From Bdellovibrionota bacterium (GTDB lineage: Bacteria; Bdellovibrionota_C; UBA2361; JBGSMV01), in NCBI GenBank assembly GCA_041739995.1, contig JBGSMV010000047.1, positions 3,972-67,971 on the forward strand: 64,000 nt of DNA, read 5' to 3'. Position numbers: made by a program. Of this stretch, positions 9,001 to 12,000 are shown one piece after another; positions within the stretch are counted from its first letter, which is position 1, and each line of letters starts with the position of its first letter.

Positions 9001-12000
9001 AGTGAGCGTTGTCCACCACTTCGGAGTTGCATAGTGCACATTCGGACCAACAGACCATGTCTGGTACTCTTGACCGTTAAGATCTAGTCCGTCTGGGTAA
9101 GCTGCCTTATTGCGCGCCTCTATTCCCATGCTCCATTGTGGGGAAAGCTTGTAAGCTGCGCCAAATGCGAATTCTAAATATGCTTCCTCTTCGGTGCGCT
9201 GATTCTCTCGTTCCCACTCCATTTCATACTCGGCGTGCGCCGCAAGCACGAAGCTGCCGAGGTCCTTGCTAAGAATTATCTTGGTCTCTGCCTCGTAGTC
9301 AGTACCGTCGGTCGTTACCTCTCCATAGACCGCAAGGCCTACTGGATCGATGACCGGACTAAGCAGAGAATAAAATAGCTCACCGGATACGCCCTTAAAA
9401 TCCGTGTCGTTCTCTGACTCTCCATTACTGCGATCAATCCGCGTTGAGTTCCAGTTCAAGTACACCGCACCCGTCAAGTTAGAGGTGATGCCATGCTCAA
9501 TCTCTGTACGAAAATCCCAAGCTGAATAGTCCTGGTCCTTGCGTCCATTTTGCTGAGTGATCCACTGCTCAAATTCCCATCCGCCCTCAGGCATTGGGTC
9601 AGCTTCATACACATAGGTAAAAAATCTCTCGTCCGCTGAAGCCGAGAGAGGAAGAAGAACAATAGTGGCCAGAGCCAACATCGCGCTAATTAATCGCATA
9701 TAACTATATATATTTACTCAATAAAAATTGTTGCTAGGTCATCCATCTCACCTACTATGAGATGACGCAGTGGATATAGCGATACTGTTATCGGTATGTC
9801 AAGCACCCGCTTGAAATATGTCGCTATGCCTGCCATAGCTTAGGCCCCCTGGGTAAGGAACTTTTGAAATGTCACGATCGTTTGAGCAATCTTTGTGGTG
9901 TATTATCGGTGCAGCTTTATCACCAGTGGTGCTGATTGCCCCGAGTTACGCCACTCAATACCTCAGCATAGAGGAGGCTAAGCAGGTTTGTTTTCCCACC
10001 GCGACACACTTCGATGGCGCCACTTTAACGCTCTCTGATGAGCAGCAGGACCAAATCGAATTATTGAGCGGCATAAGACCGCCCTCCTCAACAGTAAGAA
10101 CCTGGCGCGCTTTCATCGATTCTGAACTGATTGGAACCCTCCTGCTCGACCATGTGATCGGTAAGCATCTCCTCATCGACTACGTGCTTGCGATTAATCC
10201 TGATGGCTCCGTCAAACAGATTGAAATACTCGAGTATCGAGAAAACTATGGTGACGAAGTTCGTAACGCCGCATGGCGCGAAGCATTCGTAGGAAAGACC
10301 GTCGATTCACGCCTAGAACTTAGGGAGGACATTCCTAGAATTTCAGGTGCCACCTACTCCACGCTCCATGTCACCGAAGGAGTTCGCCGACTTTTGAGAA
10401 CCTATGCAGTACTCTTCAAATAACATAACGCGCGCGCGCCCTTTGCTTGGCACTCTTGTTGAAATTCAAGTGGGTGGCGTGCACACCCGCGCTGCTCACG
10501 ATGCGATCGACAAAGCTTTTGCTCAATTTCAGCTTGTGCATAACCTCATGAGTTTTCATCAGCCGCAAAGTGACCTTTCCCGGATAAATGCCGCCAAGCT
10601 TGGCGAAGAAGTTGCAGTGCACGCTTGGACTGCTCAGGTTCTGCAATTCTGCCTTGAACTCAACCGCACCTCTTTTGGCGCTTTCGACCCTGGCATCGCG
10701 CCGCTCTTGATGAATAGCGGCCTTTTACCTAATAGTCTGGGTGCGAAACCTAAAATGGCGTGCGGGTCAATTTCAGAGGGGAGCTCTATTCGAAACCTCT
10801 CCATTTCTCGCGTGGCTCACTGCGTGAATGAATCCGTAATTGTAAAGAAGAGCGCTGCTTGCATTCTAGATCTCGGAGGTTGCGCCAAGGGGTTTGCCGT
10901 AGACTGTGCGATAGCGGCACTTCAGGAAGCGGGCATTCCCTTCGGGCTCGCTAATGCGGGCGGAGACCTGCGCTGTTTTGGAGACCACACCTTCCCAGTA
11001 GTTTTTCGAGCTGCGCGTGAACAGGGCATGTTCGATGGGCGTATAAACCTGAAGAACCAAGCACTCGCGACTTCCGCCCTAACCTTTACCGCTCCGCTTA
11101 GCCCCATTCTGGACCCTCGCACGCAGATCGCGCTGCACTTTGACCACAGCGTGTCAGTCCTGGCCCCGAGCGCCCTAGTTGCCGATGCGCTTACCAAGGT
11201 AGTAATAGTTGACTCTTTGGAGGCCCTACCGCTGCTTTCAAAGTACCAAGCGCTATGGCTGCAACACGAGATGCTCAGCTATCAGCAAAGTGATTCTGCG
11301 CAAAACAACGATGCCGTTGAGGCGAGCTCTCTCCATGAAACTTAGTAAGTCTCAAAAAGTCATTCTCTACGTTTTATGCTCTGCACTCTTTATTAGCGGC
11401 GCAGCCAAAGCACTCTATCAATACATCCTGCAACCGGACGGCCCCTTCACTCCTGGATACTCCGAACTAGAACAAGTCTGGCTCACCGCACACGGCATCC
11501 TCTCTCCGCTATACCTTGTGGCACTTGGCGCATTGATTCCAGTGCACATGAAGCGTAGCTGGGCAGCAGGACGAAACCAGGCTTCAGGGGTGTTCATCGT
11601 GACCATTCATCTCGTGCTGATTGCAACTGGCCTCGGCCTCTACTACGCAGGCACAGAGTCGCTGCGCGCCATTAGTGTGTCGGTGCACCTTTGGATTGGT
11701 CTAGGGCTACCTTTGATACTGATTGGGCATGTGCTGCTGGGTCGAACAAGTCGAAAGTTCTAGGAGTCTGAGACATAGGCACAGACGACGTCCCGCGGAA
11801 GCCTCTTGAAATTAAATGGCAGCACTAGAACGTGCGAGCGAAGGCGGACCCTCATAAACAAGACTATGTCATAGACTCCTAAGCCTGCATGGGTCCTGCT
11901 TCTTATCGCCATCAAATCATCAATGTGCAAGTAGAGGGTGGGATTCAATCTTCTCGCGTAACGCTGAGAGCTCAGGAAACTGAGCGTCTATTGCCGAAAC

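Follow-up and report, generated by a model that had tools for sequence, protein, structure and literature searches.

A 64,000-nucleotide stretch of DNA from a Bdellovibrionota bacterium (GenBank assembly GCA_041739995.1, contig JBGSMV010000047.1, forward-strand positions 3,972 to 67,971), called the window in what follows, carries four adjacent genes for an FMN_bind flavoprotein, an ApbE homologue, a small four-helix membrane protein and an outer-membrane beta-barrel. Comparison with related loci makes it highly probable that their products are wired as an electron conduit of the cell envelope; that they form a self-contained four-component redox module whose task includes the reduction of periplasmic Fe(III) is a more finely balanced judgement, put at about an even chance. 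Three of the genes lie on the plus strand, the FMN_bind gene at 9869-10423 (184 amino acids), the ApbE gene at 10404-11345 (313 amino acids) and the gene for the small membrane protein at 11335-11763 (142 amino acids from its ATG), and the barrel gene, at 8896-9699 on the minus strand (267 amino acids), diverges from the first of them. The three plus-strand open reading frames (ORFs), with their overlaps, are exactly those given in a first-pass annotation made from the sequence. Because FMN_bind and ApbE overlap by 20 nt, and ApbE and the membrane protein by 11 nt, the three genes are taken to be translationally coupled. The ATG start of the membrane protein is favoured over a TTG upstream at 11209, since its homologues likewise begin with MKLS or MRLS. 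Each component occurs once in the window, and a scan of the window's proteins against NCBIfam gave weak RnfG/NqrC and ApbE similarities and nothing further for the module. Judged by its SufB, the source is an uncultured Gram-negative close to Bdellovibrionota, the nearest named matches being a 'Proteobacteria bacterium' metagenome-assembled genome at 88%, Bdellovibrionota at 82% and SAR324 at 77%.

In the pathway proposed here, electrons from the quinol pool or from a cytoplasmic reductase would enter an inner haem (H71/H132) of the membrane protein, cross the membrane to an outer haem (H53/H118) and pass to a flavin mononucleotide (FMN) bound covalently to Thr162 of the periplasmic FMN_bind protein. 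The ApbE-family protein would be required to install this FMN, and the outer-membrane channel, here a DUF6662 barrel, would admit a small substrate for the flavin to reduce. That substrate would most likely be Fe(III), free or chelated, and the Fe(II) product would be taken up through transporters of the Feo type, which would make the module a reductive iron-assimilation device, a ferric-reducing electron conduit ending in the periplasm.

Components and conservation of the cassette

The FMN_bind protein matches Pfam FMN_bind (PF04205) over residues 103-176 with 30.2 bits, above the cut-off of 22 (E = 7e-7). A word-indexed search with the window protein returned 432 relatives, and 34 of these, at 40-55% identity, were aligned. 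The acceptor motif for ApbE, S159-G160-A161-T162 (10343-10354, plus strand), lies inside DIPRISGATYS, as the first-pass annotation had it, and is conserved in the alignment: G160 and S164 do not vary at all, and at least 90% of members keep A161 and T162. T162 is the expected site of phosphoester-linked FMN. Further conserved motifs are specific to the subfamily, namely VIGKH (96-100), YRE (123-125), W136 and F140. Among PDB sequences the family profile picks up RnfG (E = 1.5e-10 and 4e-8) and NqrC (about 3e-3), in alignments that span almost the whole protein and bring the flavinylation motifs into register, SGAT pairing with the flavinylated GST/GAT motif of RnfG. Structure comparison gives the same relatives, in that the AlphaFold (AF2) model (mean predicted local distance difference test score, pLDDT, 88.2; residues 1-30 of low confidence) places RnfG or NqrC chains in all of the top 18 Foldseek positions.

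The N-terminus of this protein has the appearance of a cleavable Sec signal, spanning residues 1-28 (9869-9952, plus strand) with cleavage probable between A and T of S-Y-A-T-Q. Across the 34 relatives the n-region is positive (mean about +2), the h-region is short (about 12-16 residues) with a proline inside, Ala at position -1 is conserved in at least 90%, position -3 holds small residues, and the flank C-terminal to the h-region is neutral or acidic in 32 of the 34, all judged by heuristics rather than by a trained signal-peptide predictor. Because of these features the protein is probably secreted and soluble in the periplasm; the membrane anchor first ascribed to it is not favoured, and the prediction of secretion also speaks against a cytoplasmic location. 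A twin-arginine translocation (Tat) signal was considered and rejected, as the n-region has no consistent twin arginine.

The small membrane protein belongs to a large family. A word-indexed search with the 142-residue query found only the query itself, whereas an exhaustive HMMER search, run over 1.84 billion cluster representatives, recovered 936 relatives at E <= 1e-3, of which 270 reach E <= 1e-10; nearly all are 140-200 residues long. In an alignment of 62 relatives (29-43% identity) H53, H71, H118 and H132 are invariant, as are G22, G65, L102, Y104 and G122; H92, the fifth histidine of the window protein, is not conserved. The invariant histidines fall in two pairs on the plus strand, H53 (11491-11493) and H71 (11545-11547) on helix 2, H118 (11686-11688) and H132 (11728-11730) on helix 4. 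The AlphaFold model is a four-helix bundle (pLDDT 93.6; helices at 5-32, 44-77, 82-104 and 108-141) in which the helix 2 pair is 18 residues apart and the helix 4 pair 14. Its fold matches di-haem cytochromes b, a similarity that is not specific when taken alone, because unrelated four-helix bundles score well too. Basic residues cluster at the N-terminus, in the loop between helices 2 and 3 (consensus HxxRxWxAxRNRxSG) and at the C-terminus, from which an N-in/C-in topology is inferred. With this orientation the model predicts two bis-histidine haem sites, H53/H118 near the periplasmic face and H71/H132 near the cytoplasmic face.

Assignment to a family is less straightforward. The first-pass annotation had likened the protein to DUF4405-type putative haem carriers, and the placing of histidines in the helices that suggested this holds, the four being invariant throughout the alignment. 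The family assignment does not: the window protein gives no match to DUF4405 (PF14358) at E <= 0.1 and has four helices rather than six. It scores 16.6 bits against Ni_hydr_CYTB (PF01292), under the cut-off of 30.1, and has no significant Pfam match. When the 62 members were scanned singly, 40 gave a weak Ni_hydr_CYTB match (best 7.8e-8) and 33 a weak DUF4405 match (best 1.1e-4), and the family profile found no solved structure among PDB sequences. The protein is therefore not a DUF4405 member as that family is defined; it represents a family without a Pfam entry that falls between Ni_hydr_CYTB and DUF4405 inside the superfamily of di-haem cytochromes b. Two distant relatives sit on contigs of about 1.3 kb, one with ApbE upstream and the other without a match to the ApbE model.

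The product of the divergent gene matches Pfam DUF6662 (PF20367) with 69.9 bits against a cut-off of 27 (E = 3.3e-19), and Phenol_MetA_deg and OMP_b-brl more weakly. It has a signal peptide, MRLISAMLALATIVLLPLSASA, which ends in ASA and is followed by DE in the mature protein. Acidic, His, Lys and Arg residues are invariant or nearly so in the DUF6662 alignment, and the family profile found nothing meaningful among PDB sequences.

Conservation of the whole arrangement was assessed by a genome scan seeded with the FMN_bind alignment and restricted to one genome per species, which yielded at least 553 confirmed matches. From these, 80 loci were kept, drawn from Verrucomicrobiota, Beta-, Gamma- and Alphaproteobacteria and Bdellovibrio, and hidden Markov models built for the purpose were applied to 88 loci in all (designated here by L numbers). 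FMN_bind, ApbE and the four-helix protein are all present in 73 of the 88, the exceptions being mostly at contig ends, a recurrence that excludes chance as the source of the arrangement. Six look-ups of the context of individual FMN_bind relatives gave the same picture, the trio being complete wherever the contig was long enough (two contigs end in or just after ApbE), with a DUF6662 barrel, a Porin_O_P protein or a 464-residue protein without annotation as the adjoining gene.

The barrel is likewise part of the unit. A DUF6662 gene stands beside FMN_bind in 39 of the 88 loci. It nearly always precedes FMN_bind and runs in the same direction, as the first gene of the operon in most relatives (in L006 the two co-directional genes abut), and the divergent orientation is confined to the window and its three closest relatives, L001, L002 and GCA_041443025. 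At 42 loci another protein, of about 450 residues and resembling OprO/P, replaces the DUF6662 barrel or is added to it, its gene too being usually co-directional, and in the 88 loci one barrel or the other almost always precedes the trio. Pfam Porin_O_P is matched by 13 of 34 members of this second family (best 1.3e-9), and its profile matches OprP (1.9e-5) and OprO (2.8e-4). The gene for this porin lies downstream of the cassette in L012, L022, L040, L049 and L075; three of these, L022, L049 and L075, among them a metagenome-assembled genome (MAG) of Sideroxydans lithotrophicus, carry both channel types, with DUF6662 upstream, and bacterioferritin in addition. Thus the beta-barrel, which the first-pass annotation correctly recognised as a secreted outer-membrane protein and regarded as a divergent neighbour, is a conserved fourth component. 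Because two unrelated barrel types share the position, the module appears to need an outer-membrane channel rather than one particular barrel. A porin-cytochrome sheath of the MtrB type was set aside by inference, barrels of about 250-450 residues being too small to surround a 17-kDa domain.

Within this set of loci, L020 (Ampullimonas aquatilis, NZ_CP183835.1) carries the cassette on a plasmid, and L020 and L072 (Polaromonas aquatica) have near-identical Fur-like boxes followed by a similar ORF of about 988 residues. These features hint at horizontal transfer. Cultured carriers of the module include Variovorax paradoxus, Noviherbaspirillum autotrophicum and Bdellovibrio.

The ApbE homologue and flavin loading

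The ApbE homologue is recognised clearly, with 133.6 bits against a cut-off of 25.6 for Pfam ApbE (PF02424; E = 1.2e-38, residues 15-279), and it matches ApbE structures in the PDB with E down to 5e-11. Its ORF opens only 12 codons ahead of the conserved RPLLGT, the first strand of the fold, and no in-frame upstream extension is possible, so that there is no room for a signal peptide. Like about 70 of 79 relatives, which start M...RRARPLLGT, the window protein has neither signal peptide nor lipobox, and the longer ApbE ORFs of some loci are out-of-frame over-extensions without a hydrophobic segment. A Tat signal was again rejected, since RRxRP runs straight into the first beta-strand.

The catalytic centre is altered as well. 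In the Vibrio cholerae enzyme Asp285, Ser241 and His257 form a conserved catalytic centre in which His257 is the general base (PMC12052999). Alignment to that enzyme (6nxi, and 6nxj for the H257G mutant) places Pro234 of the window protein at the His257 position, with SPILDP facing SHIIDP, and shows S224 and D261 as the retained equivalents of S241 and D285. Among 78 family members the His257 column is occupied by Pro in 31 and by Ala in 23, His being left in only 6, while the Ser241 and Asp285 equivalents and most of the motifs of the flavin adenine dinucleotide (FAD) and metal sites are conserved. A second substitution concerns the tyrosine that touches the isoalloxazine ring in FAD-binding enzymes of the transferase type (Y60 in Escherichia coli; PMC4767422), where the window protein has H52 and 95% of the family has His. 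In only three relatives, L013, L044 and L065, does ApbE begin with a lipobox or hydrophobic leader, and these three retain the catalytic His within the canonical motif RY[SA]H[IL][IL][ND]PRTG. The gene order cytochrome-OMP-FMN_bind-ApbE, OMP denoting the outer-membrane protein, is found in L013, L031 and L065 (Verrucomicrobiota), and the L044 contig begins within the cassette. At L047, in a Herminiimonas MAG, FMN_bind and ApbE form one 515-residue ORF (5842-7389, plus strand) that opens with the signal peptide of FMN_bind; it is either a true fusion or the product of a frameshift in the assembly.

It follows from the lack of room for a signal peptide and from the lost catalytic His257 that extracytoplasmic flavinylation, the function first proposed for this ApbE-centred cluster, is not secure as to its site; the remainder of that proposal, a module with a secreted FMN_bind protein and a probable haem b protein, is supported. 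The loading of a secreted protein with flavin by an ApbE that has neither export signal nor His257 does not follow from the pathway proposed here, and weighs against it. The options are loading before Sec export, an unrecognised export route for ApbE, or a changed role of the enzyme.

The last option in its plainest form is a degenerate or repurposed ApbE that carries out no transfer, the FMN_bind protein being flavinylated by a housekeeping periplasmic ApbE encoded elsewhere and the module's own copy serving, for example, in FAD binding or delivery. The replacement of His257 by Pro or Ala in 54 of 78 members and its retention in the three with export leaders, the His in place of the isoalloxazine-contact Tyr and the missing signal peptide speak for this. 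Against it, conservation of the gene strictly follows that of its presumed substrate, to which it is also translationally coupled, the counterparts of S241 and D285 persist along with most motifs of the FAD and metal sites, and the V. cholerae H257G mutant retains reduced activity (PMC12052999). Loss of the transferase function is accordingly judged improbable. A slightly smaller likelihood is given to a broader departure from the conventional periplasmic maturation enzyme, in which ApbE either flavinylates the precursor in the cytoplasm ahead of Sec export or is a stoichiometric FAD subunit. As such a subunit, a cytoplasmic ApbE may dock on the conserved basic loop of the cytochrome and feed the inner haem; if true, this would be a bacterial wire running from FAD through two haems to FMN, with the ApbE fold as a redox subunit.

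The ApbE paradox would also be settled by a NOX/FRE-like arrangement, in which the N-terminus of FMN_bind is an uncleaved anchor and its flavin is cytoplasmic, attached there by the signal-less ApbE (about 70 of 79 loci), so that electrons run from flavin through two haems to a periplasmic acceptor. Members of the ferric-reductase-domain superfamily are built in this order, from flavin to di-haem to the outside (cited in PMC8238504), and in L003/L004 a Flavin_Reduct gene overlaps the cytochrome gene. The signal region tells against this arrangement, being in the 34 relatives a classical N-in, cleavable export signal by its flanking charges, proline-containing core and Ala at -1. The structural homologues RnfG and NqrC are moreover periplasmic, ApbE is lipoprotein-type or leader-bearing in three relatives, and at one locus the FMN_bind-ApbE fusion follows the FMN_bind signal peptide. 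Such an inverted flavin is therefore considered very unlikely, and the periplasmic FMN_bind protein is retained in the discussion below.

Iron context and the direction of electron flow

The first-pass annotation had found neither electron donor nor acceptor evident. As regards the acceptor this can be amended in part, since Fur-like boxes, feoAB and bacterioferritin genes in relatives point to iron. Intergenic gaps were scored against the Fur consensus GATAATGATAATCATTATC, with at least 14 of 19 matches counted as box-like. Such sites occur in 17 of 53 gaps upstream of cassettes and in 9 of 276 gaps elsewhere in those loci (Fisher p = 3e-9, a value that overstates the evidence because related loci are not independent); the direction of the enrichment is clear. 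Positive loci belong to at least nine lineages, GTCAATGATAATCATTCGC and TATAATTGAAATCATTCTC being examples of the sites, and boxes are predicted in cultured carriers such as Hydrogenovibrio, Polaromonas aquatica, Undibacterium and Bdellovibrio sp. HCB-162. At five loci feoB follows directly downstream in the same direction (in L016 a FeoA-like ORF separates it from the cytochrome gene), at five loci bacterioferritin lies directly upstream and co-directional, and in L002 a ferritin gene is near the cassette.

Partners were sought, as the first-pass annotation had suggested, by a Pfam census of the two nearest genes to either side of the cassette (136 proteins for each flank), in which no conserved reductase, oxidase or other enzyme partner was found. 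With no enzyme partner conserved, redox transfer within the module probably ends at the flavoprotein. In one verrucomicrobial lineage, L003/L004, the stop codon of the cytochrome gene is overlapped by a gene for a cytoplasmic Flavin_Reduct protein.

Several observations weigh against the assignment of ferric reduction to the window copy or to the family. Iron-linked neighbours are present in a minority of loci, and related loci are non-independent samples. The window itself has no feo or ferritin gene within reach of the locus, its neighbours being NAD (nicotinamide adenine dinucleotide)-salvage genes, a tetratricopeptide-repeat protein and an Lrp-like regulator, and no Fur-like box was found in its 169-nt promoter region, where the best site scores 10 of 19. 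For the window copy, which has no Fur-like site and has other neighbours, the iron assignment thus rests on orthology, the copy being presumed to share the role of its relatives. On the energetic side, the step from ubiquinol to FMN is uphill at the potentials typical of covalent FMN, and the donor may not be quinol. Finally, in 16 loci of Oxalobacteraceae the first gene of the operon encodes a di-haem cytochrome c peroxidase, which a peroxide-related role would fit as well.

The peroxidase raises the prospect that the same wiring serves another purpose, delivering electrons for periplasmic detoxification of reactive oxygen species or to a peroxidase rather than to iron. The flavoprotein would itself be the reductant of peroxide, superoxide or quinones, or else donate to a cytochrome c peroxidase. 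Association with the peroxidase is limited to one lineage, however, and the Fur-like box of the Oxalobacteraceae sits upstream of the peroxidase gene, again pointing to control by iron; the adjacency of feoAB and bacterioferritin would be left unaccounted for, and no OxyR- or SoxR-type context was seen around the loci. This purpose is considered unlikely.

Electron flow in the reverse direction has also to be weighed. The FMN_bind protein would then oxidise a reduced substrate admitted by the channel and feed the quinone pool by way of the two haems, so that the module would act as a periplasmic dehydrogenase supplying respiration. Direction is not fixed by sequence, the Ni_hydr_CYTB relatives FdnI and HyaC pass electrons inward to quinone, and the uphill step from quinol to FMN would be sidestepped. 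Against this, the FMN_bind protein has no recognisable substrate-binding or catalytic domain besides that for flavin, a dehydrogenase partner is not conserved, and Fur-type control and coupling to feoAB suit iron acquisition better than they suit an energy-yielding enzyme. Inward flow is regarded as very unlikely too, if slightly less so than a cytoplasmic flavin, and outward flow toward Fe(III) is the direction retained.

The promoter region of the window lies between the barrel gene and FMN_bind (9700-9868, 169 nt, 41% GC). Alignment shows that the motif GGTATGTCAAGCA (9793-9805) with TTGAAATA (9811-9818) is kept in the two closest related loci, L001 and L002. A sigma-54 promoter was considered for the GG...GC motif in this region and rejected, as the offset from GG to GC counted on the alignment is 10 and not 12. 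The same region contains a 7-bp inverted repeat, CATCTCA-N7-TGAGATG, at 9744-9764, and L001 has at the corresponding place a Fur-like site with 13 of 19 matches. On the other side of the barrel gene, 23 nt past its stop, a hairpin at 8837-8873 (minus strand) resembles a terminator and matches the consensus for one, with a 17-bp stem, nine GC pairs and a T-rich tail, which suggests that the barrel gene is monocistronic in the window. A scan of the window and the locus against Rfam found no riboswitch, such as that for FMN, and no other RNA.

Immediately upstream of the module is an NAD-salvage cluster (3263-8768). It comprises, on the minus strand, an isochorismatase/PncA-like gene (3263-3988) and a glutamine-dependent NadE (4014-5957) and, divergent from these on the plus strand, a nicotinate phosphoribosyltransferase-like gene (6037-7455), overlapped by a 437-residue ORF (7455-8768, plus strand) that has no match in Pfam or NCBIfam and, by eye, a Nudix-like box near its C-terminus. 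The opposite strand encodes, two genes beyond the module, a 349-residue protein (13626-14675) that resembles a tandem regulator of the Lrp/AsnC type; an HTH_24/AsnC helix-turn-helix occupies residues 202-248, and AsnC_trans_reg is weakly matched at 110-140. Elsewhere in the window are a ZnuA-type binding protein (21697-22677), a 623-residue flagellin (22679-24550, minus strand) whose variable middle domain, between Flagellin_N and Flagellin_C, has six FG-GAP repeats inserted in it, an ABC-3 metal-transport permease with a C-terminal DtxR-type Fe_dep_repr_C metal-binding and dimerisation domain (31549-32904, plus strand), and a 708-residue ORF without a Pfam match at E <= 1e-4 (42062-44188, plus strand).

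Relation to known systems and significance

Flavinylation-associated membrane cytochromes are a known kind of system, and those of the PepSY-like, MsrQ-like and DUF4405 types have been proposed as iron reductases (PMC8238504; PMC11334425). The closest published parallel is DUF4405/FezC (Huang, Meheust, Barquera & Light, mSystems 2024, PMC11334425), also a small His-bearing membrane protein encoded beside apbE and a flavinylated protein, with four conserved central histidines proposed to bind two b haems and with links to iron. The DUF4405 cytochrome is described with six transmembrane segments, whereas the window protein has four helices in 142 residues; its partner is Flavodoxin_4 and not an RnfG-like FMN_bind protein; and that paper describes neither an outer-membrane channel partner nor a signal-less ApbE. 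It does report DUF4405-like cytochromes near apbE in Proteobacteria, and members of the present family may already have been counted among them.

The PepSY-like and MsrQ-like clusters (Meheust et al., eLife 2021, PMC8238504) share with the module the combination of apbE, FMN_bind and a di-haem membrane protein, together with an iron-uptake context of Fur control, ferrous-iron transporters and outer-membrane uptake proteins. The membrane component of the window differs in having none of PF03929, PF16357 and PF01794 and no fused NAD-binding domain, and the outer-membrane partner is a DUF6662 barrel or OprO/P-like porin rather than a TonB-dependent receptor. Where an iron transporter is present it is FeoAB here and VIT1 in those clusters. 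Thousands of genomes with flavinylation machinery still lack an assigned membrane component, the same survey having placed only 3635 of 6230 of them in new classes.

RnfG and NqrC share with the FMN_bind protein their fold and sequence family and a periplasmic FMN carried covalently on the Thr of an SGAT-type motif, but they have an N-terminal anchor in place of the probably cleaved signal peptide, and the window protein stands alone, with no RnfA-E or NqrA-F genes nearby. The Ni_hydr_CYTB proteins (E. coli CybB, FdnI and HyaC) resemble the small cytochrome in a four-helix bundle fold able to hold two haems. They use a His ligand on helix 1, whereas the window family has no invariant His there and, like cytochrome b/b6, has one ligand pair on helix 2 and the other on helix 4. 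FoxB, FpvG, FsrB and FrcB, which work with FeoAB, are four-helix inner-membrane haem proteins that reduce periplasmic Fe(III) before ferrous import (PMC8891985; PMC10760861), FoxB and FrcB being known as di-haem ferric reductases, and the mechanism proposed here is the same. A comparison by description shows that these proteins have no separate covalently flavinylated partner or else contain PepSY domains, and none is described with a dedicated porin and ApbE. The Fur-regulated ApbE operon of Caulobacter is a different system, with DUF2271 and DUF4198 as its components.

Full-text searches of the literature on DUF6662 and on iron-regulated operons of RnfG-like proteins and ApbE returned no description of the module. 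What was not found described is, accordingly, a four-helix cytochrome family without a Pfam entry and with histidines in a 2+2 arrangement, its fixed pairing with a stand-alone, secreted RnfG-like protein, an obligatory outer-membrane channel of two interchangeable types, the links to Fur and feoAB, and a subclass of ApbE that lacks both signal peptide and His257.

ApbE-dependent flavinylation is a recognised major route by which electrons are moved out of the bacterial cytosol. The present cassette belongs to this route and is both compact and very widespread, with a cytochrome that escapes Pfam and an outer-membrane partner newly noted. Its ApbE subclass raises the question of where and how secreted proteins acquire covalent flavin. 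If the iron assignment is true, the cassette would represent a common, siderophore-independent means of reductive iron uptake in Gram-negative bacteria of soil and freshwater.

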